A stretch of 63,351 nucleotides of DNA, counting the filler, from Perkinsus chesapeaki ATCC PRA-425 (taxonomy: Eukaryota > Protista > Perkinsozoa), in the NCBI GenBank assembly GCA_013115145.1. It is 5 parts of 5 records of this genome, joined end to end, with 100 filler letters (N's around TTAATTAATTAA, not from the genome) between each part and the next. Parts side by side here need not be neighbours in the genome. Positions count along the whole stretch, not along the records: positions 1 to 20,556 come from JAAPAO010000618.1; positions 20,657 to 32,410 come from JAAPAO010000839.1; positions 32,511 to 56,848 come from JAAPAO010000545.1; 2 more parts are not named here. One strand, written 5' to 3'. Below are positions 12,560 through 56,666 of this stretch, one piece after another (the first letter of the stretch is position 1; every line of letters starts with the position of its first letter). The notes beneath the pieces are model-generated. The model had not been told where the DNA came from. It worked only from the letters and a program-made list of their open reading frames with translations, and did not search any database. A program made the position numbers and the translations under genes.

Positions 12560-13406
12560 AACGTACAATCAGTCTTACTTGAAGAGACTCTTCAACTCTG
12601 TACCGCAAAACCTCTGCAAATTTATCGAACCTGGTTTTCCCCGACACAAATAGGATATCATCATCTGGGGCAACCCACAGGGCCTGCCACGGGAAAGTAG
12701 GCATCTACTTAATTTCTTTTACTCACCTGCCTCACGCTAGGATCTTCCATACAATACAATTTTGAAACATCATGCAGTTCAAATTGATAAGTACGTTTGC
12801 GCAATTCGACCGGATTGGCGCCCGTGGGAATATCGCTGTCATCTTCATTTGCCTGCAATATGCTGTATAATATTAATCAATAGGATCACCTTGTCAACAG
12901 CGATAGGCGTGAATGCCAGTGCCGTCTTAGGGAAAGCGGATTCGCCGTGCTTGTCTTGGAAACGCTCCAGTAGAAACCGATTGCACAAACCAATTGCCTG
13001 AGTGAAGACGTAGTACGTATAACGTTGGGGGAAAGATAATAGTTTAATGCCTATTTAGTTATGATTGGACAAGTCATTTGCGTATCATTATCATCAATAA
13101 AAGACTCGATCAAGACTAGTATCACAAAAGTGCACCTTAAAATTGAGTGGTCCTATAGTGTAGTGGTTAGCACTCTGGACTTTGAATCCAGCGACTCGGG
13201 TTCAAATCCCGATAGGACCTTTTACTTACTTTACAGGCGTTCCAATGAGCCGCCGTGCCCACCGCCTCTATCCGTCTCTTCGACACGTTTTGCGCTTTAT
13301 AGCAATTAAACAGCGCCCCGGCTAGACTTTTAACTCGAGCTATATCCGAACTGCACCGCAACACAGTCTCATGGTTCAGAGATACCGGCAACCGAGAGGA
13401 CACCAT
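12560..13406 (-). CDS. SpoVS/Alba-fold-like protein, multi-exon, 3' end unresolved
   Basis: Spliced reading VLRCSSDIARVKSLAGALF...IEAVGTAAHWNACK|AIGLCNRFL...ALAFTPIAVDK resembles the SpoVS consensus. Phase-0 intron 13229-12998 has a GTAAGT donor and CAG acceptor. Confidence 0.5.
13149..13220 (+). tRNA. tRNA-Gln(TTG), intact, followed by a T-run terminator
   Basis: GGTCCTA/TAGGACC acceptor stem, D-loop AGTGG, anticodon loop CTTTGAA, T-loop TTCAAAT; 72 nt. Confidence 0.97.
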
Positions 13407-13530
13407 AAATACTATAACAGTTCGAGAGGATCAATTAAGAACAACACAACCATCTCATGGATCCTACTACTCTCATTAGTATGAAAAATGATACATAAAA
13501 AAGTGGAGGCGTCAATCGAGGGCGCAAGGA

Positions 13531-16500
13531 TCACGACTTGGGGAGCGTTGGTCGCTCCGTCACCACCGAGTTCGTCCTCAAACCATGGCTTCTGTCACTA
13601 GCCTCCACGTTGTCCAAGAAATACACACAAATGACTGTCACATTATCGCTGCTGATTCGTCGCTTCTCTTGTTCCATCAGGACCGATCTTACCAGAGCCT
13701 TCGCCGGACTCTCGCCTGAACCACCGACAAATTAACATCGTTATTATCCTGTCGCACCGAAGCGATAAATTTTTCAAGTTGTAACCGTATCCTCCGGAGT
13801 CCTTTGCGGAAGTTCCAGCGTCATATTACCTCTAGCGCCGAAGCCCTGTTATTTTCACAACAAGTCTACGCTCCACCACAGGGGCGAATAAAACACCCAA
13901 GTCATCACGATATCAACTATAATCCATCTTCAACATAAGCATCCTTAGCAATACTATTTTATCACTATTACTTTTCCATATCATTTCTTATTTCATCACA
14001 TTTTTACTTTCCCCTATTACTCGCAATTTTATCGAATTTATTATTTTTCCATGTCACTCATTACTTCATCAAACTTATCTTAATTCCATATTGTTTATCA
14101 TCCCACCACACTGGTCGATGACCACCTTACCTGCGGCTCGGCCTGCTTGAGCTATCACCGCTGCCTCCTGCGCCGAGTACACATCCCACAGACCATCAGA
14201 TGCCTGGAAACTCACAAACCTCGCCGTCTCCCTATCTATTACTGTTACCAAAATTATCGCCCGGAAATTGTCCTCATACGGCAGAACGGTGACATCGGGT
14301 ACGTTGGAGAGGCCGTACATCTTCAAATCCTTACCCTAAAATATCCACAAAAATGCAGCCGCTAAATGGGCAATTTTCCTCATCAACGGTGACGAAATAT
14401 CGTCCAAACATATGAAATCTTGGGGGAAAATAATTTTTTCCGGAAATTTCATGGCGTTCCAGTCGAGCATTATGCTTCAGGATTGAGAGGAGTGCTGTTC
14501 CTGTGACAAGTCGATAGACAGGAAATCGTATCGAGTTCGACGGGGAGATACCAGCAGGTCTCTTAAGACTGTGGCCGAATAGATGCGTTGTTCGCATGTC
14601 CGCGAATCTACCTAGTTCCACTCAGTGAATCGAATCACTGTGCAAAAGTCGGTCAGAAGTCAAACTTCCCGGAGCCAATTACCAGTTGCTATATTCGAAA
14701 GAATGCCCTATTTCCCACCACTCCCCTCCCCCCAATAGCCTTTCCGCTACTACCCCGAATGCCCGGCTGTACTGCAACTGCATCGGTTGCTCCTGCATAG
14801 CCTTTCGCACAGCGAAGTCTCCTCCACGTATAAATGGCTTATTATTATGGTTGTGCAAATACCTACGAATATGAGAGGAACCATTCCACACCAGTAAGGT
14901 AGCTATTACTCCACGGACCCACCACAGCGCTCGATGCGCCTTCGTTCGGAAACTGAAAAGGAAGACAATCGAGCATGCCCCACGAATCTGCACGATCGGG
15001 CCGGCGTCCCGCCACCTAGGGACTCCCCTATCTACCGGGCTTTTACGAAATGAAATGCCCTAGTTTTTAATGAAGCAGAGTTTTTATTGTGCTTATTCTT
15101 TCGACTCATTTCATTCCAGTAGTGCACATTTCTAACCGAAATGGTACATCGCTAATACAGGCAGCCTCCCTCTAACAGCAGCCCACCAAAGACATTACCG
15201 AGGAAGTCTACTAGATTCCCGACCACACAAGAGGTTTCTGTGCGCTACATTCGAGCCGCTATTGCCTTGCGGGTAACGTATCTTCAACCTAGTTTACGAT
15301 ACGAAAAGCATCATCACCTCCGGCGTATCCAAGCTCGAAGCGTACTCCTGGCGAATACTGCCCACTCTGCCCTCTAGTACCTTGGTCCGGTTTATGATCC
15401 ATAGTTAGAAACTCCCCTGATATGTTATGAGTGGACATCCTGCTTTGGTCGACACTGCCGCGATCTTGGGTCAACAAACATATACGACTGTCGCCCTGAG
15501 ACAGTAGGACTGCTTCCTTTTCAATACAAAATATAAAAATTACAATGAACGGTATATGGTCAAAGCTTGTCAACCTTCGAACTTTAGAACAAAACTCTCA
15601 AAACTGGCCGAGAAATAAAATTTTTCGCGATTTGCCTAAGGAAAATGCACGGTCCTTATATAAATTGAGCTTAGAATATATTATTGGTTTATTATCTTTA
15701 TTACTATTATTATACTATTATTATATTAAACGTCTCTACACATTATACTACTCTATATAATTCCACTTCTACACTATTTTCCATACTCGCCCGTCTACGA
15801 GTGACTTAACCCGCAGCTGTACTCCAATACTGACTGCGTGGTTAAAGGACAAGTTGTACTCGAGAAAGAAATATAATGCAGAATAATACTATACAGAAAA
15901 AGCATCAGATCCATTCCTTGCTGGTATTTCCTCCATCATCACTAACGACTCCGTTTTGGAGCGTTTTGAAGTCTAAGACTAAAGTCACCTGTGAATATCG
16001 AGGCAGACTCTGGCTGGCAGAGCGGAAACATCTGTCCACCTTCCGAACCACCTCCTAATCGAGGCTCTTCACTAACTTCAATGTTAAAACTCGATTGCAA
16101 TTTTGCCACTATTTCCTTCGATGTGAGCAGCGTATTTTATAATGCGCAAGAGGGGATTCGAACCCACGACCTTTTGATTGCCAGCTGCCTATTATTACCA
16201 AATGACCCACGGCCAAGTGCTCCGGAGTGAGGACGGCACATACACCAGTGCTGGCCGCGTAATGTATCCCTTCAGCGCCGCACAAATGCATCAATTCTAC
16301 ATCTGATCGGACGAACCTAATACACAAATTATAAAAGATAGAATAGAGTCGCCGGGGTTCGAACCCACGACCTTCCGCAGTACATATCCCCGATTGCAGA
16401 TTCCAAGCAACTTCTTTCCTTGATCCATTTCGACCGGGTCTGAGGCTCGTCAGACTTTTGCAGAGCCTCGAATTCTCTCCACCCGGGTGTACGTATCAGG

Positions 16501-16800
16501 TGAGCGAACACCAGGCGCTTCACATTCTCCGCTGCAAAGTCACCTGTTTCCACAGTCCAACACGTATAGCACCCCGCTACCAACCGAATGGTCCCGGGTT
16601 CAATCCTTGCTACCTGCTGTTCCGTCAAAAAGGGCAAAACCTGACGCCGGCTCATTCACGCTCAAATCCGGGCATATTGTGAACCGATCCTCCTGCGTCC
16701 TTCGGCCTCCAATGTGAGTAAACGCCGACACTTCAAGCGTCGTCCCTGGGATTCGAACCGGGGCGGTTATATCATGCTGGATTTGCGGACAGCTCATCAA
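13531..16800 (-). CDS. PP2C/PPM-family protein phosphatase, multi-exon
   Basis: GGRRTQEDRF, FDG, ASTGVCAV, HL|GDSR, TMDHKP, QYSRAFG, ASDGLWDV and DNVTVICVYF motifs in order. Confidence 0.9.
15496..16198 (-). other. PP2C intron beginning with a sense tRNA 3'-half remnant (16143-16184)
   Basis: ct-ggc-aa tcaaa aggtc gtggg TTCGAAT cccct cttgcgc a tt lies just after the GTAATA donor. Confidence 0.75.
16317..16383 (-). pseudogene. 67-nt PP2C intron containing a sense tRNA 3'-half remnant
   Basis: GTACTGcgga aggtc gtggg TTCGAAC cccgg cgactct a ttct. Confidence 0.75.
16544..16613 (+). pseudogene. 70-nt PP2C intron containing an antisense tRNA 3'-half remnant
   Basis: Plus strand reads ct-acc-aa ccgaa tggtc ccggg TTCAATC cttgc, ending at the donor. 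Confidence 0.7.
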
Positions 16801-17049: not shown

Positions 17050-20000
17050 TCAATGTCATCTATCGCTCCAAAGCAGCATCAGCAGCAGGCTTGCACAGTT
17101 TTTCGAGCCAATGATGATGTCTCCAACATTCGTATTTTCATCGTCCTTCTTCAGGATATCTTATCTCCAGAACTGCATTTATTCATAATATTACGGAATG
17201 ACACTTTTCCGCAATTTTTCATGTGCATTCCACTAAATACACTTCAATGTAAATGAACACCATCGAAGAGGCGTAATAATACCAATACCGGATTTTTAAT
17301 TTGATACTGATTGCATAGCAGATGAACCAAAAGCTCACCAGTGCCTCCAGCTGCCTCCTGCCGACGTAGTTCGCGATGCCTATATATCTCTCTTTGAATA
17401 TTCTTTTGCCGTTCCTTCTCTACAGCGATGGCTTCGGCCAGCTCTGCGTCACGGCGTCTCTTCTCTTCCAGTTCTCTCTCAATTTCCCGTTGGTCCGCTT
17501 CCTAAACCTCTCAAATCCTTTCGAAGAAGCTGCAGTAAATCCGACCGCAGGAATCCAGAGTCGATCTCCGGCGGGACGTCGAAGCCAGATACGTGAGAAG
17601 TGTCAGAAACATATATGTGAAGATAATTTAGACGATTTATGAACGTCATTAAAAGAATGATCGATGCGAAAGGTGTCTTCTGATAAAAATAAGTGGATGT
17701 ATTTTGTATTTGGATACCCAGACTACTCAGCAGTCATACCGCTCCTTCCTCTAATCACCAGTTCACAACCCTCTCCCCCCCTCGCTTACTTCTCTCTCCC
17801 GAGCCTCCTTGATTTGCCTTGCTAAGGTTTGAGCATGCTCCTTTCTTGCACGCTGAAACACAAGACACCAGGTAGTCCAAAGAATGGCGTTCCCAGTCCC
17901 GTAAATGCTACAGTTTCATGGAGAGCTACAATGGGTTCAGAGGCAAGGTAAATGAAACCAGTTGGGGAACAAACAAGCAGTGTTCACCGCGCAAGTCCTT
18001 GCATGGCTTATCTGTCTCAGTTACAAACCCGCAAGAAGCGAAACTTCCAGTGCCATATAGTGATTTCGCTCTCACCGTCACATTTGCGTGACACAAAAAC
18101 TGTCTCCCTCCATATCTCTCAAGCCTCTCCACCCGCTCACCTCTTCAAAGTCCTTCCTTTCTTCAGCGAGTTTATAAAACTCCTCCACATCTGCATCGAT
18201 TTGCTGACGCTCATATTCAGCCTGCTACGAGCGACGGGAAATACGGTATGCACGCATGCGCTTCACCTCCTCCCTTCTCCTTTGTCTAACCCTATCGTGG
18301 AGCTCTACTTGTTTTTCCCTATCCTCATAGACCTCCCTCAACAACGCTAACCGAGCCTCCCGCTCAGATTCCCATTGTGCGAACCTATCCGAAAACCCCA
18401 TCTACTAACACATCAGTATCGATGTGTCATCAAGTGCTTTCGAACTTTAATAAAAATACAGCCTTTCAAGATGAAAAAATGAGATATTTTTTCGGCAGTG
18501 GAATTCATTATAGGCCGCCGCCCTCTAGGAGCGCCTGTACCTTTTCTGCCACTGTCTTTCGGCCTCCTCCTCCTCCAGCCTCGCCAGCTCCTCACCACTC
18601 TTCGCTCGAAGTGCCATTTCCACTTTCAACGCTTCGTTAAACTGACATCAAGCGAAGAAGGAGATTACACTCTCCCGACAATCCACAAGTGGAGAGTATA
18701 ACGAACATCAGCAGTACCAGAACATCGACCAAAGGACGAAGACGCCCGAAGAACCATCCAGACGAAAAATATAACATCTCAAAGGATTCCCACCAAGTCA
18801 TGGGCGATCTTCGCCACACACTAGGCGCCAGGATGTCACATACCGTGCAGACTAGACCGTCCCTTGCTTAGACGTGCCAGGAAAGAACAAGGTCTTCCAA
18901 GGGTAGGCGCTCTCACCTCGTATTGCTGCCGCATCTGCAATGCCTTCTCCATGGCTTCTTTTTCAGCCAATTTCTTTTCATTTGCAAGCACGTTCAAAAT
19001 CTGCCGTCGAGATCCACACAGTCGCGGCGCGCAAGAAAATCTTACGAGCTGCTTGTCCTGAGTCTTTTCTCTTTCCTTTTCGGCATCTCGAGCCTTCTTA
19101 GTTTGAAGCGCGTACTCATCCATTCGTCTAGAAGGGGCACAGGTTCGAACCCCGATGACCGCATTTTTGCTACCGTCGAGCCTCAACGTTCTTTATTGCC
19201 GCTTCTTGCGCTGTTCGCCTTTTATCCTCTTCGACTTCCTTCCACACGCTTCGCATGTACTCCCTCTCCCCCTCTAACGCTCGTTGCTTCTCCTACAGTT
19301 ATTAAATAATAATATTATTACTAACAATCCTCTCTAACTCCAAAAAATCAACAAAAAAGTCACAGAAGTTCAGATCAATAGGCAAACGACCAGCGCCCGC
19401 CGAACTCCACCTGTTCTTCAATTTTTTTCAATTTCATCTGCTCATTCAATGTTTCCTTAGCCAAGGCCGTTCGAGCAGCTTTGATCTGCTCCTGGGCCAG
19501 CTCTCTCACAACCTTATCTTTATACCTATTACAATTCGGGCATTAGACAGGAGCATCGGAATGCCCCCTTTTGCCAAGAATATATTCCCTTTTGCAGCCC
19601 TAAAAACACATTTTTTCCTCAAAAGGCAAATATATCTCCGCAAAAGGAGCAGCCTCCGAAAGATGCTAGGCGCTGCCCTAAAGAGAATGCGGTGAAGTGG
19701 CGGAGATGAAGTGCAGTAGAGGCACGACTATGCTTTCGAAGACGCGCAATATTCTACTACCCCTCCAAGATACATATTGAATATTTAAAGTGGAAAAGAT
19801 GATATAAAAAGTATACCGCAAAAGAGCAGGTGTATCTCATAAAACGTCCGAGGGCAACGCGCCAGATTAGCCTGTTCGACTAAGCCGAGCCGAAGAGGCT
19901 CGATTGTATTCATGACAATCATTCAGGTTCATGTCAGGTCTACGATCTGACGCAGACCTTACCCTTCTTGCCGCAGTCTATCATAAATAGCTTCTTCCTC

Positions 20001-24027: not shown

Positions 24028-24788
24028 TTGGGGACGGTCGAATCAGCTGCGAAGAGTATCCTAGAATCCATAGACGGAGAAGATGCAGATCGGCAAGGTC
24101 TAAAAAAGACGCCAATGCGCTACGCTAAAGCGCTGGAGTTCCTCACTAAGGGGTTCGTTATACCGCAGCACTCTACGGTAGATTACAATGGTGATAGGTA
24201 CTCGGAGACTTTGGAGGAAATAGTCAACGATGCTGTTTTCGATGTTGAGCCGTTGGGCAATGATGAGATGGTTATGGTACGCGACATTGACATGTTCTCC
24301 CTGTGCGAACACCATATGCTGCCTTTCTACGGTAGACGGCGCAGGTTCGATTCCCACGGGCGGCATTTCTTGGTTCAGGAACTGTGGACATAGGATACAT
24401 TCCGCGCGGCAAAGTGCTTGGCTTGAGCAAACTGGCGAGGATTACGGAAATGTTTTCAAGACGGTTGCAGGTGGGCCACGAGTCTGCAGCGGTCTGCAGT
24501 CGGGTGAGACCAGTCTTTCAGGTGCAAGAAAGGATGACGCAGCAGATAGCTAGAGCCGTGGAGGAGGCCGTCGAGCCGCTGGGGGTGGCTGTGGTTGTTA
24601 GGGCTACTCATATGTGCATGAGTATGAGAGGTGTCCAGAAGTCTATGGCTTCAACAACGACCAGCTGCGTATTGGGGGCCTTCAGGTCGGCAGCACTTCG
24701 GCGATGTAGAGTGACACTTGATGCTGATGGCAGGTCAAACCCGAAGACGCGCGCCGAGTTTTTCAGCCTCATCAACCACAAGGCGTAA
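24028..24788 (+). CDS. GCH1: GTP cyclohydrolase I, multi-exon, N-terminus unresolved
   Basis: [54 protein letters not shown]|[17 protein letters not shown]. Confidence 0.95.
24332..24378 (+). pseudogene. 47-nt GCH1 intron containing a sense tRNA 3'-end remnant
   Basis: GTAGACggc gcagg TTCGATT cccac gggcggc a tttct...cag. Confidence 0.75.
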
Positions 24789-25395
24789 AAGCCCTCACAG
24801 CATCAGCAGCTTGTTGCTATCGTCCAGCTTTCCTCCCTCATGCAGCCCCTCTTCTGCTCTTTCTGCTCGCTTCTTATATTCTTCCTCGCTCTCTCCCGCC
24901 ATACATTAAGGCTAGCACTTGCTCCTCCTCCTGCTGCTTAAGCTTCGCTGTTGCTTTGCACTGGTGTACTACTACTATGGGTTTTGTCGATTGTATATTG
25001 CATATAAGAATAATAATTACGTTAAGAAGAGCGTTGTTGTGAGTGACCACTGGCCGGTATGCTGGGGACTAATAACATATTTTTTCGTTGCCATTCTAAT
25101 CTGTTGCGTGACAGACTCATTTAGCCCGGCGGTCCGCCCGATCGACAAGCAAAACCTCGAGGAAGATTCGAACCTGCGGATGATTGATTTACGGTCGAGC
25201 CCATCACCGACCGGCCATATCCTCTCGATTTTGTGTGATGTAACCGTTGATCGATTTGTTGATCCTCCCCCAATAGTGTTGCACAACCCTGTGCCCCTGA
25301 TATCCCACTCGGCCCTCAACTAGGACCCCTCCTCTACTATCTTAAATCATTTCTACCATTGCCGCCGTTTCCTCACGTGCAGGGTTCCTTTTATA

Positions 25396-32750: not shown

Positions 32751-33195
32751 CGTCACTCCTGTACACTGCCTGTATACTTCCAACAGTCGCTGTACAATGT
32801 ACAGCAATATAATACCACGACATCTCAGTCACTTTCGCCGTTAGTCCTCTACACTCTGGTAGGCGCCATCTCTACTGCCCTAAGGGCACTGCCCTTCTAC
32901 AGTAGAAGTTCTACTCACCTAAGGCGAGTCACCTTCGGAAGGTGACCTTCCTACGATGTAACAGCGCTCTGTTGATGCAATGGATCCACCCCATGGGCCA
33001 ACACATTCCGTCATCATGTCGGAATGTGTTGGCCCATGTGGTGGATTCGTCGCGGCGTCATGACGGCGTCATGAGCCAAGGCTTGACTGCCAAGCAATCT
33101 TCCAACCCGCCAAGCAAGGAATCTTGCTCACTTGGCTACTCTTGCATATCCTACATTTTTGTTTTCTTTCATGCGGTCAACAATCGTGTACACAC

Positions 33196-34656: not shown

Positions 34657-37600
34657 ATGGGTAAGGACTATTACAACATCCTCGGCGTGGATAGAAGTGC
34701 CGGACCGCAGGAGATTAAAAAAGCGTACAATTTTGGGGCGCGCGGGAAATATCTCAACGGGGAATTTCCGTCCATAAATTCGATTGAATTTTCAACTCGG
34801 ATTGATTAAATTGAAGTAACGAATCACTTCATCGAGTTGGTCGATTTATTCCAGCCATTCTGGGGCGCGCGGGAATTCATTATCTTCCAACTCTTCATTT
34901 CAGGTACCGTAAACAAGCCTTACGGTGGCATCCCGATAAAAACCCAAATAACAGGGAAACGGCGGAGCATAAATTCAGGGACGTACGCTGATTAGTCGAA
35001 GCTTTCCATTAGTCCATTTCGTCATTGTTAACGTCATTCGTCGTTAGTCTCCTCTATGCGTACTTTACTGTTCTTACGTAATTTACGTTCCTCCTTATTT
35101 TTTAAACAAACACCGTTCATTTTTCGGGGCAATTTTCTATTACATGCTTTTCTGCCCTTTTCGCCTTTTGCGTTTCCCGTCATTTTCTATCTGTTCTATT
35201 TTTATCATTTTTCCTTGGTCCACATTCGCCGCTCTATTCCCTTTCCTTCGCTCTTCCTTTTCAAATAATAACCTTCTCATCTATCGTTTTCCGATTATCT
35301 CATTCCGTTTGTTGTTCAGATAGGAGAAGCATTTGACGTTCTTAGTGATTCTCAAAAGAAAAATATGTACTAGGGTTACGGCGGAGCGGAGCTTTTTTGT
35401 CGTTGGAGGTGGTTTGGAATTAATGGTATTAGTAGATACGATCAGTTTGGTGAAGAGGGGCTTAAGAACGACGGAGCAGGATGTGGCTTTGGGCCAGGAA
35501 TGTAATAAAGAGAGCAGACACAGGAACATGTATTATCCTCCTCCGTATCACTAGTAACATATTTCCTATCAAACTCCTTCCTATTATATCTCCTCCTCCT
35601 CCGTATCACTAGTAACATATTACCTATCAAACTCCTTTCTATTATATCTCCTCCGTATCACTAGTAACATATTTCCTATCAAACTCCTTTCTATTATATC
35701 TCCTCCTTTAATCAGGTTCGGTGGTCGCGGCGGTGGAAATGGATACCATTACAGTTTCTCTCGGGATCCGAATGATATATTCGCCCAGATGTTCGGTGAC
35801 GGTGGCATGTTCATGAACAGCGGCGGGATGGATGATTATGGCGATCCGTTCTTTGGGGGAGGTAGTAATCGGAAGGTCGCGGGTTCGAATCCTGGTCTTA
35901 CATTATAATGTGTAATAACAAACGTAATTTAATTTACATGGCTCAACTACAAGCATGAACGTCTGATGGTTGGGAGTCTAATTGGAATTTATATCACGGA
36001 ACTCGGCAGGTGAAAAGCTAGTCAATTCTGGTGAGGTACAACACTAGCTGCCAGAATCTTGTGACAAGATACGGGGACAGCAAATTGTGTGCTCACACAA
36101 TCGCACATTTTCACCCATGCGTATTTTTAATTTTTGTAGGAATGCATCGGCGGAACGGATTTGGACGGTGTTCGTCGAGGCGAGCATCGAGTCCTGAAGC
36201 TAAAAAGAGCCGTAAGTAGAGTAAAACGTCACGCGCCACAAAATTGGGGATCTATTATAGGAATTGCGGAATTCGATTTAAAGTGCTCGTTAGAGGAGCT
36301 CTACCAAGGAAAGGCGAAAAGAGTAAAGGTGAGGATTCTTCCATGCGAAAGGGCGTGGGTTCGATCCCAGTGGGTGTCGCTTTAGATTAAGAGATCGAGC
36401 TGTACTGTGCAAAGGCCGTCCGAGACCACACTGGAAATTGAAGTTAAACCTGGCTGGAAAGCCGGTAAGCATCGAACTTTCTGACACCTCTAGCTACGGA
36501 AAATCGCGACGGAAATGTGTGGTTTATTGTAGAGTATATTTGCTTCTTGTTTTTCCCGTTGTTGATACAAGCTGTGGTAGGAAAGAACGCCCCTCTTCAT
36601 CATCCGTTATACTTATCATTATACACTCATTACACTGCAGTGATATGGATTTATTATAATAATAAACCAGTAACAGAAGTAGTATATCCCACGTAGTCTT
36701 ACGTAGGTAAATTGATATAATAGTAAATGAGTAGCATTCAAGCTATTGCTGCAACACGTACCGTGTTAAAGCTTCAAGAGTTGAACCTCGGTTTCTAAAA
36801 ATGTGTGTAAATACGAATTCTACGTATCAAATTTAATCACTTTGTAAATTTCTTGTGGTAGGCACTAAGATTACGTTTGCCGGGGAAGGTGATGAGTTGG
36901 GCTGCTCCGGCAAATGCCAGGATGTAGCCTTTGTTATCAGAGAGAAGGATCATCCTTTGTTCGAGCGATCAGGGTGAGCTTGGAAATATCTTTTGGGAGC
37001 TGGAATGAAATTTTTGGGAGTTCAAATGAGCATTTTTAAATAATGTCATAACTCTACCAAGAAGCATCTTCGTATATTTGAACTATATAATTATTATGGA
37101 AATTCTGGATCAATAATATTTATTATTTATACTGTATTGAGGGAGCTGCATGGGAGAAAAGATTATGGAGCAGTAGTTGGTAAACAGTTATGACGGAAAA
37201 CCGCTCTGGGAGGCGAGAGCAATCTCGCCAGTCAAATCTTCCTTGCCGCTGTTCGGCAGTTTGGCCGTGTCGCACCTTGTCCCATTGTTAAGCTCTGCGC
37301 GAATCACTAGGAGTTAGAATTCCGATCTACTTCTTCGGACCCCCCCGGATCAAGTGTTAGGAGTTTTCGAATTTGTTAATTTTACCCAACCAGAACAAGC
37401 AAGGAAGGCGTCCGTTTTCCGTTATGAAATTTCACCACATCCTTCCCGATTCACCGTATCGTGGTTTTCACCGGTAACTGTCATCCGATGCGGCTCTAGT
37501 ATAACCAGTTAACATATGTTCAAGTGGGTAGTTATCATTTTAGCATGTTTTCTGTTGAAGTGTAAAAGTGAACGCTTCGTGGTGTCATGTGAATTGGCAT

Positions 37601-38687: not shown

Positions 38688-38728
38688 AAAAACGGCAGGC
38701 CTAGGGATCGAACTTGAGTGATGGCGTA
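38688..38728 (-). pseudogene. Degenerate tRNA 3' end with terminator; host context unresolved
   Basis: Minus strand reads tcaag TTCGATC cctag gcctgcc g TTTTT. Confidence 0.5.
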
Positions 38729-39017
38729 CAGTAATCATCATCATCAGCTACCAAGTAGATACAGGATTCATTCAATGTTGATTGATGAACCCACTGCCTT
38801 GAACAATTCGCCTAAGTCGATCCTATTCATCATCATTATCTCCGGTGTGCTGCTGTGTATTATATAAATACAGCCATTCTATTTTCCAGAGAATTTCTGG
38901 ATGCATTTCTCCATTAGCGTTGTGTAAGTTACATAGTCTAGTAAAGAGGACGGGTCGCAATATGAAATTTCAGCGATTTGAAATCGCTCACGTTAAAAAG
39001 TTCAGTTCACCTCTTTG

Positions 39018-43064: not shown

Positions 43065-46000
43065 ATGAAGCACTCACCTGTGGAAATGATAGACCGCCAA
43101 TGCTTTCTACTTTTCTGTGATTCACCTAGTATTGCTATATTATAAATATCGATAATAGTCAAGGAGATCTTCCTTCAAGTAGGTTCCCAAGATCTTGGTG
43201 TGCGGGTTGCCAAGATCGGGAAAGTCTTCAATCGTTCGCGTTGTGTTCGGTAAGACTTCACCACATGAGACCGCCTACTTGGAGCCCACGACAATCCCTG
43301 AAGTGAGGCGTAAGAATATATCCCTTATATTGAATTCTGTCTGAGCCGTTCTTTCTCTAGATGTTGCAAATCATTTGGTTCACGTTAAGATCGTCGATGT
43401 GCCCTCCTCCTACCAACTAGACAGAGAGTCTGAGGAGGAGCCGACCGAACAGGACAAGATCTGGTTCGGTCGGACTGTAGCAATCGTCTTTGTTATTGGT
43501 AAGCTGCGGGAACCAAGGAAAGCTTTCTGTAACGGAAGTTCACGTGAAGTGGTATTTGTATAGTAGCCGGGCAATGTGTGCTGACTGTTGTTTGAATTCC
43601 TCTATAACCGTGATGAATCTGGACCGATATGTTCAGCTCGAAATATCTTTCCATGTAGCGACCCGTTGTTTGCTATTGGTAGCGTTGGTATAATTTCTTA
43701 TTAGAGATATCGGAATTTCCTCTAGCACTTGAAATAGGATATTATACTCCAAGCCGAGTCGATGAATATTGGTCGTCTAATTTCATCAACATATAAAGGC
43801 GTATAAGTGATAATTATGTTCAGATGTAGAACTTAAGAGGGTCTTTCCTGGGCAGCTTGAAGCGTGCATTGTTGAGATTTTTAGATTCCTTAGAGGACAA
43901 CTGGCATCAATCCCTCCTATATGCCCGTAGAGTAGTTCGCCGAGCTATTAGGGTGAACCCCAACATAGTCTTCCAAGTAAGAGCATATACCAGATAATTT
44001 CCGCCTTTGTTTTGATCGCTCTGACAAAAGCTCAGCGAGTTCGCTTGGCTGGGAAATCCCCAAGACACGACGTGTTTCAGCCACGTGTTTGACCGACATT
44101 CGCTCACTTGATAAATTTTCCCAATGAATCGACGACGTTCATGCTATTCACACAACCGATATTATCTGGCGCGCGAGAAATTATGAAAAATTGAAATATG
44201 AAATTATGAATTATGAAAGAAGTGAAAACTGAGCAATGAAAAAGTGACTTGTTTTGCTTCAGGTTTTCTATCACAAGATTGACAGCAATTATAGATTTGA
44301 TGGCTCATATGGCGGTAAGAACTCTGAACTCCGACAAATTTGCATCTTCGAACGACAACGATTCCCTAATGAAGGAAGGAAATGAAGTCACTAATGACTG
44401 GCGGCGCAGTCGGGTGCTTTGATCGAATCATCTTGCTCGAGAATTAGCCTTATTTAGTATTCTTCAGTTTTGCGAAATGCGTGCGCGCAGCAAGGGAACT
44501 AGTTTGTCATAGTTCTTGTCTGTAAGTATTATTATAGAGACTCTTTGACGAGTCGGAATTTGACTCCGATAGACGACGACGATTCTGTGATGATTTCCGC
44601 GCGACGGAATATATTCCTTGAATCTCAGGTGATGGAATGAACGCACTTCATGGCGAGGAGATATCAGATGCGTATGTGAAGGAGTTGCAGGCGTCACTCG
44701 GTGCGTCACTGCGCCACGAAATTGCCACCAGCCCCTTTCAGATGAAGAGCTGTATCGAAATGGATGCCGTGTCGCTATTACTTGGCATTGCACTAGCATC
44801 TACGATCACTCAGTAAGATACTCCTGGGCGTTGCGCACCCGAAAGAATTGTGAATATCTATATGGTTGAAATGGGTCAGAAATCAAAGTGTTCATGCATT
44901 CCCTCGAATTTAATCTGAGAGAGTACACGACCACTTCGGGTCGTGGCTCGTGAGACTGTTCTATAATACTCGCCATTCTGATTTGTTGTCAATAAACTAA
45001 CGACTTTCTGACTCGTTTGTAAATACCTTTTCCAGGAAGCATTTCTGAAACTTTTTTGTCGTCGGGAAGATACTGCGCACAGCGGAGATTTTTTTCGTTC
45101 CTCAGGTATTCGACTGCTTCTCGAGACTTCTTCAGCAGCTATCTGTGGTGCACCCTCACGGGCAATGTGTGGAACAACTTTTGGACTCATTGGTGTCGAA
45201 CTGCAGGATGGAAAGAGCGTATCTTTTCGATATCGTATCTAAGGTGAGCTCTGTATTTAATATCTATTTTTCTTAGTAATTATTCTTAATTGTTTATCTT
45301 TAATTTTCTATATGTTTGAAATTTAATCATCTAGAAATACCGTGACATAATAACTATCCAATATAATAGGACTAGTTGACAATTCCGAGTTCTCCCAGAA
45401 GTTTCGATTCCCCCCTGGTGGTTCATGGTGCACGCATGTGCCCCGTGGTGGAAGGTATTGAAGACTGAGAGCATATAGAACTCTCTCGAGTTAAAGCATG
45501 CCCTCCCACTAACACCCGCACGGGGAAACGCACACACTGAGAATACTCCGGTTAATCGTCACACCTGTGCGGTGGGTCAGTTTCCCGTTTCCCGTTGAGG
45601 CGTCTCTCTCATAGGTTTATTTGGCGAGTGACTCTGGATTTGGTGGTGGTGATTCGGTCTTGTCGTACGAGCTTATGTCGGACATGTTGGACGTTATTAT
45701 TGACACTAGCTGCATATATGGAATTGGTGGGCCGAGCGGAAAAAGTAAGGGAAAATACTCAAGTTTTCCGGAAATCTCTGCAAACTTTCTGGAAATTTTC
45801 GCGAAATTTTCCCTAATATATGTCATTTCTCAGATGACCACAAGACAGCGAATCCACGGGATGCGGCTGCGGTTCAACAAGGTGGGAGGAGGTGGCGGGT
45901 TCGAAATATTCGATCTTTTCGGGAGCAGGTGCCGGGCCTGCGTCACTCGCCATAAATTCGGCGAGCTCGTGCACTATATCACTGAGCAACGGCCTCGTGC

Positions 46001-46756: not shown

Positions 46757-49700
46757 ATGTCATTCCTGGTGGACAGTGAGCGTCCTCATAAGCTAGACGA
46801 TCTCACATTTCATCCCAGCCTTACCAAAACGCTGAAGAAACTGGTGAGGGTTCGACGCCAAATGTTACATTTCGAGTTGGATTGTTCAGTCTTTGTAGTT
46901 TCTGCAGGGCGACGGAGAGGTTTTGAGATTCGCCCGATTTTCCCAGCAGTTCCGACTATCCCGAAATTGCAGTTTTTACACCCCTCCCTGTGAAGACGAT
47001 TTCCCATCTTTAATTCGGAAGCACGGCTCTGTTCCTCGTCGTAATTATTGCATTATGCGTTGACAGAATGCAAGAGACCAAGATACCACATCTCGAAGCA
47101 TGTTGATGTTTCTCAGGCAAGGTCAAATGACTGCCCTCATCTCCTTTTCTACGGTCCCAGTGGGGCTGGTAAAATGACTCGGTAAGTACCCCCCAAATTC
47201 TTCATAGCGCGCAAAGATACTTCTTCAGGATACAATGCTTGCTGGAAGAGATGTTCGGCCCTGGCGTGGAGAAGGTGTGACTTGATTCTCCGCCATCGTG
47301 AGTATCTTTATTCCAGACCACTACGAGCTTTCGACAGTTCAAGCCGACACCCAGCACCACCGTGGATCTGCAGGTGAGGGAACTTCACTGATGCTTTTGG
47401 AAACAGCGCTAAAACGCTAATGTTATAATCAGTTCCTGAAAACTTTTCCATATTTTCTCGGTGGTTTTCAATCTACTTTTCACTTTTTAGTGTTTCAAGC
47501 AACGTTCGTTTTTTCAAGCATTTTTCGTTTATTCATAATCTAGATTCATGAGTTGGAGAAACGGGGGTGCCGCGGCTGGAGATAACTCCTTAGAGGACGA
47601 CGGAGCCGAGGCTGCGGCTGATTTTCCCGGAGAGACGAGAGAGTCTCTCCAGTCTCTACCAGGGACGGACCGTCTCTGGTAACCAGACACTACCTTACTG
47701 TGTCCTGAGGTCATACGCATTATCACCTCTATCAACTCAACATATCTTAATGACGATGCTATAAGTTAATATCAACAGTGTAATACAATTATGCCGATGC
47801 TCTAATAAGGAGCGTCTGTCCAGACGTGAAGCTCGGATCGTCACATCCAATCGGTCATGGAGATCTGAAGGCGTGCCAACGCTCACTCACATATGAGTAG
47901 TGACTCACGAGGGATTAGAGATGATCCTAAGAAGAGTGATACCTGTAGCACCGGACCGATGCTAAAGGTACCATTTTGACCGGGTCAAAAGGTTTTGTTT
48001 AAACCTTATAACTCATCTGGATATAAGAGTCGAGCTGGTCATAAGTTTGAAGGAACCTATGTTGTTGGAGAACAAGTTAATCCTGTAGTGTATCGTATAC
48101 GAGGAGGACGGAACAGTGGTCTCTATGCTATGTAACTGGTACCTTCACAATGGATCGAGGATCAAAGCCGGGTGCTACAACCTTTCGGGCCGCGGACTTC
48201 TTTCTCTGCCTCGCAAGGTGGGGATTCTCCGCCTGCATTCTAAAGAAGATGACGCCCGTGGACGCGTTGATCTACTTGGCTAGAGTCTCCGAACTGGGCC
48301 ACTATACTGGTGTATAGAAAGTCAGCCAATGAGGATATATTCACCGCCAAGCTATACTGGTGTATCCTAGATGCAATCGGCCGATGCTGAGTTTCGCGCT
48401 GAGACGTCTGTCGGCAGTCTTAACGATGCCTAGAGGAAAGCAGTTGGTATTCTTCAACGAAAATTTCCCAAAGACGAGTTATCTCCATCGTCTGTGTCAT
48501 CAGAAATGATGTATATTGCGTGATCAGCATGCAGCGCTGAGCCATCACAGAAATCACGCTCCTTGGTCAGCTTGGCCGACTCGGCCACCATGGACTGTAT
48601 AGGGGCGCAGCGCTCCCGTAATTCGTTGATAAGCGACGGGACGACGAAGGCGGGATCCTCACAGCGAATCCCTTTCGTCCCCGTTATGTGACCTAGAAAA
48701 AGAGCCCTACTGCATTATTCGTTACCTGTATTTTCCTAATTCGAGCGAAAACCCTCCAGAAGCAATGTTTCACTTTTTATCGAACGAGCAGGCTGCTGTC
48801 GCGGTCGTCCCTCGGAGGAAATTCAGAGTGGTATCGAGGGTTCATCTAGCCTAATGGAGATGTGCTCTTAGAGAGTTTCAAAGTGTTCCGTAGAACCTCT
48901 GGAACGCTTTTGCACTCCGGCGGAGATTTCATCGAAAATATGGTGTTTATGGAAATATCGGAAACATAGTGTACACTTCTACATTGAAAATCCTTCTCTT
49001 GTGAAATATATCATGCCACGTGAGCTCTAATTGTAGGTAGTCGTGAGTGCCTTCCATGTTGAAGTAACACCGAGTGATGTCGGTATCAGAGACGCTGCGG
49101 TTATACAGCAGGTGAAAAATGACCAATGCCGGGATCGAACCAGGGACCTTTCGATTGTCAGTTGATAAAGCAGATGGCGGAGAACCCGCCGGTTGGCGAA
49201 GTGCCGTTTCATGTTGTTGTTATCAATGATGCACATTGTCTCACACGGCAAGCTCAAGCAGCGCTGAGACGAACTATGGAAAAGTGAGATTATGAACTTT
49301 TGTGTAGTTGAAAGTACAAGTTGCTCGGACGCGGACAGCAATCTCGGGTTGTACTGTACAACCCGAGATTGCTGTCCGTGGAATTGTAATCCTTCTCAAT
49401 GAGATTGTGGTTCCCATCCGCGAAAGTCATTTCTCTGCTCGCCAAATTGGAAAAAGAATCTTGAGAAGTATAGAGTGCGATCGCGTGTTTGAGGGAGGCG
49501 CTCATGATTGAATGTTTGACGTCCGCCTGTGAAATTTGGGGAAATGGCAAGTCTACATCGCCGCTCACATGGTGTACGCTCCTCCATACCACTCTCAAGA
49601 GTCGCATTTTCTGGGCGAATCATTTTCTGCTCTGATGTGGCAGCTGGAACCTAGCGAAGTTTTCGGAATCACATCATCCCTCCGTCGCCAACCAGTGCGT

Positions 49701-51847: not shown

Positions 51848-52001
51848 TGGCATCTTTTTTGCACGACATTGAGTGTTTCTGTTGAGTTACGGGCATTTCT
51901 ATACACTTCCTGTATAAGAGAGGATTATATAGTCGCTATATTATAGTGTATATATATTCTTAATGAAGTAAGCTGTAGGCTTGAGGGAACAAATCAAGAT
52001 T

Positions 52002-52031
52002 GGGGGCTCGAATCCCACGGATGTCGTTTTT
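52002..52031 (+). pseudogene. Leu/Ser-type tRNA 3'-end remnant with terminator, between RFC3 and the PCIF1-like gene
   Basis: ggggg cTCGAAT cccac ggatgtc g TTTTT. Confidence 0.65.
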
Positions 52032-52233
52032 CGGCAAACTTGTTTTTTCCTCTAAATTTCAAGACCTGGTCGACGAGAGCTGTTTTTACTTCAGGGAAGC
52101 CAAAGTGGCTGGCTCGCACCTGATGACCTAAGGCGGTCGTACGATTATTTTTTGGAAGTTCCACTCGAAACGACAATCAATTTTTACTACTGTTCGCATC
52201 CCTTTTCAATCAGTATTTTCTATCTACATTGCT

Positions 52234-54512
52234 ATGAGTGACTGTGATTCGATTGAGGACCTTGCTGCCAGTTTAGATGATTACATTTGTCAAGTAAGAA
52301 TATCATACAGGTTAGAACTGCGGAAGCCGGGCCGATCAACCTGTCACGAAGCTCGGGACCTTCGTGGAGATCAAGGCTCGTCTTCCGACCGCCTTCAGCC
52401 TCTTATGATCGTCTCTTATTCTCCAACGCTTCTCCAACACAGTAATATTTTTCTGTGTTGGAGAACTGTTCGCTTCAGAGCCGCAAAAAACGGTCTTAGG
52501 ATCGTCTGCATTTATGGGGTAGTGAGTCTCAATTTTTCTAAAGTATCTGCAAGCCACCCTCGGCTCTTCTTGGACTAACTACAGAGGACATGCAAGGGAA
52601 CTAGTGATGTACATGATTGGGTACCAAAAACCCGAGCGGTTCGAAGATTAAAGGAGTCCATGCATGACGCTCAGGGGGGGGCGATATAAAAAAAGCAATT
52701 GTAGCGTAACAGTATGAGCAGGGGCCATAGGCCAGAGTAAGACCGTTTCACCGGCCAGGGCGGGCGCGTCCTTCGGTGTCTCGCAAATATACTTACCGAA
52801 CCGTAATGAAGATGAACACCACGATGACATAGGTACATGTACGTCACAATGTTGACGGGGACGCATTGCTATGAATTTTGTTCGTCCTGGTGATGTTTGC
52901 TCCAGCTCTCCATCTTCAGTACGCGGCGATAACGTCCACGCTGCTTCGCGTGCGGAAGACCATCCTCGGCTCTGTACGGTTATCTCGGAAATGCCCGAGT
53001 CATGTGAGAAGGCGAAAGTTTTACCAGAAGTACGAATTCCATAATTGCTATGGCCGCTTTTATATTGCCGTGATTAATGGGAGAATACCGTTTAAAAAGG
53101 TAGGTGGGAGGGATCGAACCAGGGACCTTTCGATTGCGCGCTCCGGTTAGGTGCTGGACAAGCTGCGGGCTGAGGTTCGAGAAAAGCACCTCGAATGTGG
53201 GATACTTGACAGTTTTGAGGGAGCAGAGGACGTCGAAGAATTTGCTGAAAAGTGAGAGTAGACGTGGCGGGGGATTGAACCAGCGACCTTCAGGTGTGGA
53301 GTCGAGCCGCTTACCAAAGATACTGTGGACGTTGACGCTGCAGTTGATGACATTATCGAGCAGCCAACGAAGGACTTGGCAAATATCAAATTCGTTCACA
53401 AAGTAAGCTACCAAACTCTAGCGGATTTGGCGAACTTTTCGTCCCAGTCCGACCCAGAGTATCTGTCGCTGGAGATGACCAAAGAGCGGTATGAGGAGAT
53501 GATTTCCTTCGCACGAACATTCGCGATTGAGCGACTGGATAAGGACGAAGCAGAATCTGCGTCACTCGCCACGAAATTATTCAAGCTCTGCATTGCTTGT
53601 TACATAACAGCATCATCTCCCCTTTATTGGGGCTTCGGCCCGAAGGTGAGGGTATGTAGGAGCCTAGCTTCGCTCCGCCTCTTTTTGTGACATGTTTACC
53701 ATTTTTGAGACCATCACCACACTAGAGTATTGGCGTGCTCGGCACTCCGGAAATTTCCTTTTAATTTTCTCGAAATTTTTTGTCTGGATTTTTCCAGAAA
53801 TTTTTGTATGGGATTTCAACAAGTTTTGAGGAGACCTTTTTCAGGTCTACCAGTTCGTAGCGGAGAATCTCAACGCTCGGCTCGAAGGCTACGCAAGCCC
53901 GTTTAACCACACATTAGTGACATACTGCAGTCCATTCTGTCTGGACATGGTCAGCTCGCAGATCGGTATCCATCACCGAAAATCATTGTGTAGGTTTTCG
54001 GCTCTCTGGGAAGTGTTTATGGCCCCGCGGTCACCCGTGAAGTCCGAAGATTGGTCGAAGAGCTCCGGCCAGATGAGCGAGTGATGCTCGTGTTGAATCC
54101 GCCCTATCTGGAGTCGGAACTGGTTAATTGTGCGGACCGTGTCTCCGAGTTGGTCTCGATCGATGAGCGCATCCGAGTGATGAGCATTGTGCCACAGTGG
54201 GACGACGCTCCTGGCATACAAACGTTACGGGGCGAAGATGGTCGGCTTAAGGGATTCCTGGCGGAGGACCGATTATTAGGGAAATATGATCATTATTATT
54301 GGGACTATCAGGTAGCTTTTTGGTGCTTTAAAAGTGGGAGTTATATTCTACTACTTGTACTCCTTAAAAATAGTTCCCAGTACGCGCCCTCGTTCCTTGT
54401 CAGATTTGGCTCGTCGCGTCGTTTTACTTCACTGATTGTTAAATATTAAATATTTCTCATTATTTTTCGATAGTCCGTCCAGCTGGAGTGGACGCTAACT
54501 GCGTTACGTTAA
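52234..54512 (+). CDS. PCIF1/CAPAM-like adenosine N6-methyltransferase, multi-exon
   Basis: LEGYASPFNH...YCSPF..D|VFGSLGS...LVLNPPY...SIVPQW matches the PCIF1 pattern FASPLN-YCSAF-FGSRG-NPPF-FIPEW. Confidence 0.75.
53100..53150 (-). pseudogene. 51-nt intron with an antisense tRNA 3'-half remnant
   Basis: Antisense reads caa tcgaa aggtc cctgg TTCGATC cct; the 27-nt core is identical to 49131-49157. Confidence 0.8.
53252..53293 (-). pseudogene. 42-nt intron composed of an antisense tRNA 3' remnant
   Basis: Antisense reads ctga aggtc gctgg TTCAATC ccccg ccacgtc t. Confidence 0.75.
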
Positions 54513-54539
54513 AAAAACTGAGACTTGTAAATTTGCGTA

Positions 54540-56666
54540 ATGGACTTCGACCAGCGGTAGGTATCTTGGCAGCACTGCCACAAAACTAATATCTCTACCG
54601 TTCATTTTATAAATCCCTTCTCGTGAGTAACTAATGAGATTCTAAGGCTTAACAGGCGGCGGTATGGCCTTGTTGGCCGTGCCGCCGCCTAAGGAGAAGG
54701 GGATTTGAGCGTTTCATTATCCAGGCCGAGTTGATATTTGGCGATCGCAAAGTCGCCGAAACACTTTGGTGATTTTTCCTTTTCGATCTCGGGGACGGCG
54801 AGACGATGCTTCTCGGTCAATTTAGTGTTTGTCGCCCTCAGAAATGGAGACCGATAAACGCCAAGTTCGGGTCAAGACTTTTGGTGTACAGCAAAAGTGG
54901 CAACGTGACGACGGACGAACGAGGGAAGGTTGACGAGTTACTAGGAATCATGAAGAAGCAACCTGACGAGGAGGTATCTTTGTGAGCTATGAAAAGCAAG
55001 GTTCAAGCTAAGATACCGGTCGGCTTGCCGTTCAGGAGCAAGGTGTTTCGGAAAGGCCACGTAAGAGGCTGACGTTGACTCCCAGATCGCCGTGACCGCG
55101 AACGTTTCGAAAAATCAGATTTATGTCGGGTTTTGATAATCCTAAGATGCAGTGAGAGCAAATCGATCACGTGATCGATTATTTTTAGAATGTCAGAGTC
55201 ACCGATTTTGAGGGTCCCAAGTGACGATCCCGGTCCGAGAGAGGACAATCTTGGATGGGCGGAGTACTTCATGGCACTGGCGCACGTCACTGCCATGAGA
55301 AGCAAGGATCCATCCACGCAGGTTCGATTCTCGGCGACGGTATTTCAATAAATTAAATACATGCTGCCATCCAAAGCCTTTGTGCGCTGCTGAACTCAAC
55401 AATTAATATCTTTTTAAGCTATTCAATAAATTGTTGTATCGTAATAAAATAAAGAACGTCCAATGCTGCCAGCTTAATTCGGCTCAGTTCCCCTGACCAT
55501 AGAGTGTGTTTCTAGTTCATGTAGAGGCTCTATGATAGAGTGTGTTTCTGGTTCATGTAGAGGCTCTATGATAGAGTGTGTTTCTAGTNNNNNNNNNNNN
55601 NNNNNNNNNNNNNNNNNNNNNNNNNNNNNNNNNNNNNNNNNNNNNNNNNNNNNNNNNNNNNNNNNNNNNNNNNNNNNNNNNNNNNNNAGGCTCTATGATA
55701 GAGTGTGTTTCTAGTTCATGTAGAGGCTCTATGATAGAGTGTGTTTCTGGTTCATGTAGACGACGAACCCGAGGCGATAAAGGAGTCAATAAAGGCTTGT
55801 TCTCAGTCTTACTCTTGAAAGGCGAATTAGCTATGCACGCATGTGCATAGCTAACGGAGCGCGCAATGGATAGCAGCTGTAGAGGTTGTACGACTTTGTG
55901 GTGCTTTGTGTGATCAGGTTGGTGCGGTAATAGTGAATCATGAGAACAAGGTGGTTGGCATAGGGTAAGCTATCACTTTTAATAAGTGGTCGGTTGAAGT
56001 ATAGTTCACGATGCTCAATTGCAAATGCGGCAAATATTTTTGGAAATTAACCGAAGTTGCTGGCATCCATAAATGATGTCACCCTCTGTCACGAGTCCGT
56101 TCATTGCATTCCTTGCATCTCAAACACATTCCACCTGACGTCAAGTTCATCAATTGGAGATCTCCGGTTCGCCGGCGATGCCGACGACGAAGTTGAACAC
56201 GATTAAGTTGTCACGAGACCTGCAAAAATGCTATCTTTTCGGATGTATCAGTCGCGGAATATTTTCAATGATTCGCTCAGCGAAATTGTCAGTAGTGAGA
56301 CTAATAGTCTCGTTGGAGAGTTAGAAATGTGTATCAGGCTGGGTTCGGATCGTCGTTAAACCTTCATCGACTTCTGCTCTGTCGAGAGCTCATAATTGTA
56401 TATCCGTGTTGGATCAGAGGAGCTCATAAGAACGCATAGCGATGCACGCGGAACTCCTAGCCGCTTTCCCGGCTTGTCATTTTTTGTAAAGTGTTGTGCA
56501 AAATATCCGATCCTCCATGTGTTGAAGAGGGCATTGCTCAGCCAGCTGGGGTTGGATTCTCATGGAGAGTTTCGTTCAGATATAACGGCTTCCCATCGAT
56601 GGGCGAGATTGATAATGATGCTCTGTTGAACTGGGGAAAGAAAGGAGATAAACCCATTGAATCAAA
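54540..56666 (+). CDS. DCTD: dCMP deaminase, multi-exon, 3' end lost at the contig end
   Basis: WAEYFMALAHVTAMRSKDPSTQ|VGAVIVNHENKVVGIG|YNGFP. Confidence 0.9.
55500..55760. repeat. 36-bp tandem repeat spanning an N gap (55589-55687) in a dCMP deaminase intron
   Basis: atagagtgtgtttctagttcatgtagaggctctatg units. Confidence 0.95.

Follow-up and report, generated by a model that had tools for sequence, protein, structure and literature searches.

Fragments of tRNA gene 3' ends recur at the starts of Perkinsus chesapeaki introns and are possibly retained as TFIIIC sites

The window analysed here is a stretch of 63,351 nucleotides from Perkinsus chesapeaki ATCC PRA-425 (assembly GCA_013115145.1), in which five parts of five records are joined by filler. 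Within it we modelled 83 introns, with splicing predicted throughout from open frame and GT-AG ends, in 11 genes: PKG, PP2C, CFAP53-like, GCH1, DXR, a methyltransferase, DnaJ, RagC, RFC3, PCIF1 and dCMP deaminase. RFC3, PCIF1 and dCMP deaminase were named by protein matches, and the other names are assumed from family motifs. After removal of two doubtful PP2C introns, 81 introns were counted. We found that about one predicted intron in eight held a fragment of a tRNA gene 3' end close to its 5' splice site (donor), and that these fragments were real, far above chance and tRNA-derived. Protein comparison showed the RFC3 and PCIF1/dCMP exon models to be consistent with Perkinsus proteins: RFC3 matches were found in P. 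olseni and P. marinus, and one PCIF1 exon matched a P. chesapeaki protein at 100% identity across 104 aa and P. olseni at 69%. The other intron models were drawn from reading frame and family motifs; a protein search with PP2C found no relative, so its introns rest on frame and motifs.

The enrichment was evident from counts of the B box, for which the consensus GGTTCRANNCC was used with no mismatch allowed. The 63 kb contained 12 perfect B boxes, comprising 10 in introns, one in predicted PP2C coding sequence (16757) and one in a tRNA-Gln gene. Perfect boxes thus occurred in 10/81 introns, compared with a mean of 0.22 and a maximum of 2 in 300 dinucleotide shuffles, and a chance origin was rejected on these figures. 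All 10 intronic boxes lay in the first 60 nt (shuffle mean 0.05). These intron starts amount to 4,310 nt; the remaining 11,878 nt of the introns had no box, nor did the 34,948 nt outside modelled genes, the tRNA gene excepted. Genes at 30.4-32.1 kb and 38.9-44.6 kb were left unmodelled and are tallied in this last class. The probability that all 10 would fall at intron starts was P = 2e-11, or 2e-6 if restricted to introns. GGTTCGA was also the top 7-mer in introns when words were counted without bias, and the B-box core was the top 8-mer, while a control set of 80 RFC-family loci gave 12 perfect boxes per 388 kb. In the long host introns the fragment was near the donor in all four cases. The distance from the B-box centre to the acceptor ranged from 17 to 663 nt in the 13 intronic copies, and a role as branch point was rejected on this range. 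The distribution among genes was borderline uneven, fragments being present in 0 of the 26 introns that belong to PKG, DXR or the methyltransferase and in 12/55 elsewhere (p = 0.07).

A preliminary description made by eye had listed about 16 such fragments in either orientation, most of them within about 30 nt of a donor and never followed by CCA. A T-loop/B-box-like word was present within ~30 nt at all 16 places, and the 13 copies that had been called intronic all lay inside introns of the present models, although the quality of support was uneven. These 13 comprised 8 sense and 5 antisense copies, and the B-box centre was at most 30 nt from the donor in 11 of them (range 4-39 nt). CCA was found at positions 74-76 in 0/16 copies. 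Three further places had been left without a context: 52002 proved to be a good copy and 38690 a moderate one, and 25151 was weak and intergenic. When the copies were scored by a leave-one-out procedure without the B-box columns, taking the top 0.05% of window positions as support, the flanks supported 10 copies, namely those in PP2C introns 1-3, CFAP53-like intron 2, GCH1 intron 2, DnaJ introns 5 and 7, RFC3 intron 5 and PCIF1 introns 2 and 3. The copy at 52002 (+ strand) was also flank-supported (top 0.08%), and dCMP deaminase intron 1 was supported on its 3' side alone (18/25 versus PP2C intron 2); the flanks of the RFC3 intron 1, RagC intron 3 and 25151 copies had no support in this scoring. 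DXR intron 3 and GCH1 intron 1 start with GTTCG without the remaining layout and were excluded from the counts.

The fragments share a span of about tRNA positions 37-77, containing the variable loop, T arm, acceptor strand and a T-run (Table 1). Among the 10 perfect copies, G46 was present in 10, A43 in 9 and C48 in 9, with AGGTC at 44-48 in 6, C72 in 7 and A73 in 5. T filled 23/30 cells at positions 74-76, and 10/12 in antisense copies, in which the T-run is not a polypyrimidine tract. Several introns are little else than a fragment: RFC3 intron 5 corresponds to positions 32-81, PCIF1 intron 3 to 40-81 and CFAP53-like intron 2 to 38-83. The perfect B box in predicted PP2C N-terminal coding sequence, at 16746-16775 (-), has a tRNA-like 3' side; it may have arisen by chance or by exonisation of a copy, or may mark an intron that the gene model missed.

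Table 1. The tRNA gene and the tRNA-like fragments of the window; sense and antisense refer to the host intron.
Feature	Position	Strand	Host and remarks
Intact tRNA-Gln(TTG) gene	13149..13220	+	TTTT directly after; ARAGORN, cmscan; excluded as the type from which the fragments derive (variable loop differs)
tRNA 37-77 fragment, sense, perfect B box	16139..16179	-	PP2C intron 3 (16198-15496, 703 nt)
Fragment, sense, perfect B box	16340..16380	-	PP2C intron 2 (16383-16317, 67 nt)
Fragment, antisense, one B-box mismatch	16582..16622	+	PP2C intron 1 (16613-16544, 70 nt); 3' end runs into exon
Fragment, antisense, perfect B box	19127..19167	+	Fills CFAP53-like intron 2 (19173-19128, 46 nt)
Fragment, sense, perfect B box	24332..24369	+	Fills GCH1 intron 2 (24332-24378, 47 nt); T-run abuts acceptor
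Weak T-arm-like copy, one mismatch	25149..25189	-	Intergenic, GCH1/DXR interval; flanks at background level
Fragment, sense, perfect B box	35867..35907	+	DnaJ intron 5 (35862-36139, 278 nt)
Fragment, sense, perfect B box	36343..36383	+	DnaJ intron 7 (36329-36385, 57 nt)
Moderate copy, one mismatch	38689..38729	-	T-run in register; candidate 67-nt GT-AG stretch 38751-38685, gene unassigned
Weak copy, sense, two B-box mismatches	45883..45923	+	RagC intron 3 (45882-45928, 47 nt); flank top 4%
Perfect B box	46844..46874	+	5 nt past donor of RFC3 intron 1 (46844-47116); flanks unlike family
Most tRNA-like copy, antisense	49112..49161	-	Entire RFC3 intron 5 (50 nt, tRNA 32-81)
Copy, one mismatch	51990..52030	+	T-run in register; candidate 127-nt PCIF1 5' untranslated region intron 51968-52094
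Fragment, antisense	53100..53135	-	PCIF1 intron 2 (53100-53150, 51 nt)
Fragment, antisense, perfect B box	53256..53293	-	Fills PCIF1 intron 3 (53252-53293, 42 nt)
3' part only	55322..55346	+	dCMP deaminase intron 1 (55322-55917); donor GT = G53-T54 of B box

The preliminary description had traced the fragments to a tRNA gene (T arm, acceptor strand and terminator), and this origin stood, given the layout and the matches to tRNA genes beyond the B box. In particular, a 21-mer common to two copies matched a tRNA-Asn and a tRNA-Met gene exactly, and three copies matched annotated tRNA genes in phage records, e.g. a tRNA-Ile over 42 nt at 83%, at weak E-values of 0.007-4. The tRNA-gene matches, the kept T-run and the missing CCA point to tRNA-gene DNA or a pre-tRNA with its terminator as the template. 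The further suggestion that the introns once housed a tRNA gene fared less well, as it predicts 5' halves too. A 3'-part profile of the T arm, built from the tRNA of the window and 45 tRNAs from elsewhere and used with the threshold at the 99% shuffle level, placed 12/81 introns above threshold with 0.8 expected, whereas the corresponding profile of the 5' half placed only 1/81, also with 0.8 expected. The 5' profile is less informative, so worn 5' halves would be lost sooner; intact tRNAs pass it, with a median of 12.7 versus a threshold of 10.8. The only place in the window at which ARAGORN and cmscan found a complete tRNA cloverleaf (RF00005), D arm and A box included, was 13149-13220, and an Rfam search at E up to 10 called none of the fragments tRNA. 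Having a B box without an A box, the fragments resemble TFIIIC sites away from tRNA genes, which are compared below.

Several other sources were considered. A match to tmRNA at 16341-16435 was dismissed as chance-level (E 6.3), and a search of viral contigs with a 25-nt exact pattern was empty. A long terminal repeat primer-binding site was rejected, CCA not being present, and so were tRNA genes split by Dada transposons, for which the break point is wrong (the A box at positions 8-13, not 32-44). The features of a short interspersed element (SINE), namely an A box, an unrelated body and an A-rich or repeat tail, were not found in the copies, which stop at the T-run; a master elsewhere is possible.

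Comparison of the copies with intact tRNAs revealed that the primary sequence has been retained but the RNA fold has not. In the outer three pairs of the T stem, Watson-Crick pairing was present in 6/30 cells (chance 25%) versus 114/132 in 44 real tRNAs, and with wobble pairs included the figures were 12/30 versus 131/135; the copies do not form the paired 5-bp T stem of RF00005. Uniform decay would need ~40% change per site (p about 0.4) to explain this loss. Such decay predicts 5.7 one-mismatch B boxes for each perfect one, and AGGTC in 6/10 copies would then have P = 4e-5. The B boxes observed were 10 perfect ones, at most 5 with one mismatch and 1 with two. A search with the variable loop only gave 21 matches, of which 8 had 0 B-box mismatches, none had 1-4 and 13 had 5-8.

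The fragments are dispersed beyond the window. RFC3 intron 5, the one copy used as query, matched 14 records in the source contigs, itself and 13 others, at 80-93% identity: 5 of these sisters lay at 90-95%, 8 under 90% and none at 95-99%. The sister matches ran from the T-run to positions 27-45 with unrelated flanks, some stopping at 62-67, and the seven matches listed lay on long contigs of single-copy depth, where they spanned 36-54 nt. If the window is typical, 10 sites per 63 kb scale to ~7,000 in the 43.5 Mb of contigs, a rough figure from one window. An independent-site model at 7,000 copies expects at most 0.5 matches of 40 nt at 87%. Because sister likeness exceeds this model, the copies stem from common templates, and convergent binding sites without common descent were rejected on the same comparison.

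To place the host introns in time, we used spliced alignment of RFC-family loci from metagenomes, taking the best 80 of 588, a sample biased to few introns in which 43 had a predicted intron. The position of RFC3 intron 1 (after residue 29, phase 0) was present in 15/80 of these distant loci and that of intron 5 (110, phase 0) in 0/80. A P. olseni RFC3 model (P0009) splices exactly from the intron-5 donor, two models of a P. olseni RFC3 paralogue (P0031, P0077) resume or begin exactly at the intron-5 acceptor, and in P. marinus the paralogue shows 52% identity. By these gene models, the intron-5 position appears to predate a split far older than the 80-93% sisters; being older than the paralogue split, the intron would therefore have had its interior overwritten, or held by selection. 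Similarly, a P. olseni PCIF1 model (P0169) contains two extra residues at intron 3, which suggests that this intron is common to P. chesapeaki and P. olseni. The dCMP deaminase intron presumably matches a human intron. Direct repeats at the borders of fragment introns were not longer than in 69 others (2.9 vs 2.4 nt, p = 0.35), and target-site duplications were rejected for want of an excess; inverted termini were looked for by eye only, and none were seen. The proposal of a tRNA-derived route to intron gain was thus not upheld where it could be tested, the positions of RFC3 introns 5 and 1 and PCIF1 intron 3 being shared and border repeats not in excess. Turnover of intron interiors is possible.

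The preliminary description had named retained TFIIIC sites as an alternative, and this predicted role fits the data best. We tentatively favour, at a little short of an even chance, the reading that tRNA-gene ends were copied into introns, trimmed to minimal size and probably kept as predicted TFIIIC sites without RNA polymerase III (Pol III). The pieces carry the variable loop, T arm, acceptor strand and T-run and are devoid of CCA, 5' half and A box. Their template would have been tRNA-gene DNA or unprocessed pre-tRNA, and the recipient introns, at least some of which existed beforehand, would later have been trimmed to ~45 nt. RNA pairing was then lost, and positions 43-48, 52-62 and the T-run were retained; the retained part may be a protein footprint on DNA, for which orientation does not matter. 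As at extra TFIIIC (ETC) sites, TFIIIC bound in the absence of an A box would not start Pol III transcription. More speculatively, the sites could organise chromatin or slow RNA polymerase II (Pol II) just past the 5' splice site. In the structure of yeast tauB on DNA, +37 to +76 of the tRNA gene was built, with base contacts to the B box, to G47 upstream and 3' of the box; altering +44 to +47 affects binding or transcription, and the A box contributes little to retention, as far as the consulted part of the report states (PMC11724288). The tauB span and columns are those kept in the fragments, which fits both orientations and would explain the missing 5' halves.

Several observations weigh against this reading. 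RFC3 intron 5 and PCIF1 intron 2 share an identical 26 nt and diverge directly after the B box, and dCMP deaminase intron 1 resembles PP2C intron 2 on the 3' side only; young daughters of degenerate templates, or chimeras joined at the B box, give a like pattern without selection on each copy. With young copies, 10 perfect versus 2-5 imperfect boxes need no such selection either (P = 0.18 for 2/12), and the RFC3 intron 5 sisters are alike at 80-93% including the acceptor strand, above the independent-site model. The agreement in span with tauB may be forced by the minimum intron size (39-51 nt). RFC3 intron 1, the sole host shown to be ancient, has the B box only, for which the chance expectation is ~5%, and the intron models are our own. 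Finally, the absence of fragments between genes and their tie to the donor are unexplained by TFIIIC sites: the ETC sites described in the consulted part of one report are intergenic (PMC3395662), and a plain chromatin role fails to explain the intergenic absence. A broader scheme appears doubtful to us, in which thousands of putative intronic tauB footprints would exist genome-wide, a 40-bp piece overwriting the interiors of old minimal introns, doubling as a splice signal either way and setting TFIIIC behind 5' splice sites, where it would organise chromatin or pace splicing.

An introner-like insertion family derived from tRNA would instead make the introns themselves. Here 5'-truncated pre-tRNA, or copies of a degenerate SINE-like master, would land in exons; survival as either strand would give a pyrimidine run and AG, and the B box would be perfect as only masters are selected and copies are young. 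Introns that are nearly pure fragment (RFC3 intron 5, PCIF1 intron 3, CFAP53-like intron 2), donors in one register in the first two of these, a subfamily with 13 sisters, the confinement to introns and the lack of the RFC3 intron-5 position in all 80 distant loci, a sample biased to intron-poor genes, all suit this explanation. We consider it unlikely, however: the intron-5 position is shared with a ~52%-identical paralogue, as judged from gene-model break points, and is far older than the sisters, the intron-1 position occurs in distant loci, border repeats and inverted termini give no sign of insertion, and intron ends fall in many registers with 0/13 sisters at >=95%.

It seems rather improbable that the fragments are neutral relics of the hundreds of Perkinsus tRNA genes, some of them intronic, that decay and shrink, and in which B-box-seeded gene conversion or template switching refreshes the core and makes chimeras without selection. 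Relics should follow the share of neutral DNA, which the position of all 10 boxes at intron starts contradicts, and should leave 5' halves, which were not in excess in the weaker profile; moreover, Dada does not cut at 32-44 and none of the 13 sisters lies on a contig of multi-copy depth. Nevertheless, this explanation accounts for the 26-nt identity that ends right past the B box, for a resemblance between dCMP deaminase intron 1 and PP2C intron 2 that is limited to the 3' side and for sisters that end at positions 62-67. In P. marinus, moreover, tRNA genes number over 500 and fall into five families, and Dada transposons target them, according to the consulted part of one report (PMC3706591). 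Alternatively, the motif could act in the pre-mRNA, where, close to the 5' splice site, it would enhance splicing or be recognised by enzymes that modify T loops. The strict donor-near position, the identity of motif and donor in dCMP deaminase intron 1 and the nearly palindromic B-box core, which gives TCGAAY on both strands, agree with a signal in RNA. T-loop-modifying enzymes require the T stem, which the copies have lost, and the asymmetric variable loop and T-run are kept in antisense copies, whose RNA shows the complement; such a signal is very improbable.

We compared the fragments with known systems. Extra TFIIIC (ETC) and chromosome-organising clamp (COC) sites of S. cerevisiae, S. 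pombe and mammals are likewise lone B boxes without A box, with extra conserved outside bases, acting at the DNA level without a fold (PMC3395662, PMC11724288). The Perkinsus sites differ in being visibly copies of tRNA genes, in reaching upstream to the variable loop and in lying in short introns of Pol II genes, and here they are putative, known from sequence. ETC/COC sites lie in intergenes, often divergent ones, whereas no perfect copy was found in 34.9 kb outside modelled genes, the tRNA apart, and the Perkinsus number would be in the order of the rough extrapolation above. The fragments are therefore ETC/COC-like but are not filed as members. Reuse of Pol III-derived sequence as a TFIIIC site reportedly occurs also in Alu elements, whose B boxes are said to be bound by TFIIIC. 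These elements, and the promoters of trypanosomatid small nuclear RNA genes, have retained both boxes (A and B) or the entire body of a SINE, in contrast to the 3' 40 nt in ~45-nt introns of Perkinsus. In those trypanosomatid genes, tRNA-like A/B-box promoters reuse tRNA-derived sequence as a TFIIIC site (PMC10781861).

Introners and introner-like elements resemble the fragments in that related sequence fills short introns of unrelated genes and the element may give a splice site (PMC11282704). The Perkinsus copies, however, show no excess of target-site duplications, no common ends and no near-identical copies, occur in both orientations and sit, in the hosts that were compared, at positions that appear old; introns nearly identical end to end were not found, given the many registers and the one copy with sisters that was tested. 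tRNA pseudogenes, SINEs and Dada targets in P. marinus share an origin from tRNA genes in a tRNA-rich genus (PMC3706591), but the fragments are 3' parts only, at intron starts only, without a SINE A box, body or tail. The consulted part of one report gives Perkinsus introns of 39-1622 nt, mostly <100, and does not mention tRNA fragments there (PMC3101222). A literature search, which did not extend to Repbase or to papers behind subscription (Perkinsus genome reports with their supplements among them), found no account of B boxes or of 3' pieces of tRNA within introns of Perkinsus. What is new here is the testing of stem loss versus box retention, of 5' versus 3' halves, of position and of intron age. 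If the favoured TFIIIC reading is true, sites would lie in ~1/8 of introns in a dinoflagellate-adjacent lineage, at a density well above that in yeast with its eight ETC sites. They would provide thousands of natural tests of TFIIIC away from Pol III genes. If an insertion family made the introns, tRNA ends would be a new intron source. Under either reading, tRNA sequence would have taken over the interiors of introns whose positions are old, with implications for the turnover of minimal introns; neutral relics would be a curiosity limited to the genus.

Other motifs also recurred, and the DNA motifs that window introns carry near donors may be more numerous than the fragments suggest. TCAC-N1-2-CGCCAYRAA, a pattern picked by eye, occurred six times on the + strand (36229, 38270, 44706, 45943, 50372, 53562; shuffles 0.02), in 3 introns, 2 exons and 1 other place, the intronic ones 5-26 nt from donors. 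Its reverse strand is tRNA A-box-like with a low 5'-profile score, and other contigs carry matches to the site at 44704-44724. GCGGAGCGRAGC was found five times (16884, 20706, 20739, 35381, 53678), both intronic ones near donors, and GGCGCGCGNGAA, which we take to be E2F-like, three times (34737, 34864, 44168). An imperfect palindrome, ATCGAT-N4-6-TGATCGATT, was present at three loci (38440, 41018, 55162). Additionally, 55848-55864 (-) in dCMP deaminase intron 1 and 53134-53150 (-) on the acceptor side of PCIF1 intron 2 are a near match of 17-18 nt, possibly a shortened D-arm piece.

Among the neighbouring features, RFC3, PCIF1 and dCMP deaminase (46757-56664) appear to be adjacent in P. olseni too, with neighbouring accessions and one fused model, and a second RFC3 paralogue in Perkinsus shares intron positions with RFC3. 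The DXR gene (25396-27609) contains 11 short introns, none with a fragment, and a long N-terminal extension, presumably for plastid targeting. By eye, 7200-8480 and 9840-11110 are intronless genes in tandem duplicate with an esterase-like GYSNGG motif, and the minus strand of 58930-61000 contains coding sequence resembling a retroelement. DnaJ intron 4 (35560-35710) and positions 1-70 share a short repeat with a depth of >30,000 versus 77 in the source contigs. Finally, a near-perfect inverted repeat of 69 nt at 32981-33049 gave miRNA-model matches below the model cut-offs.

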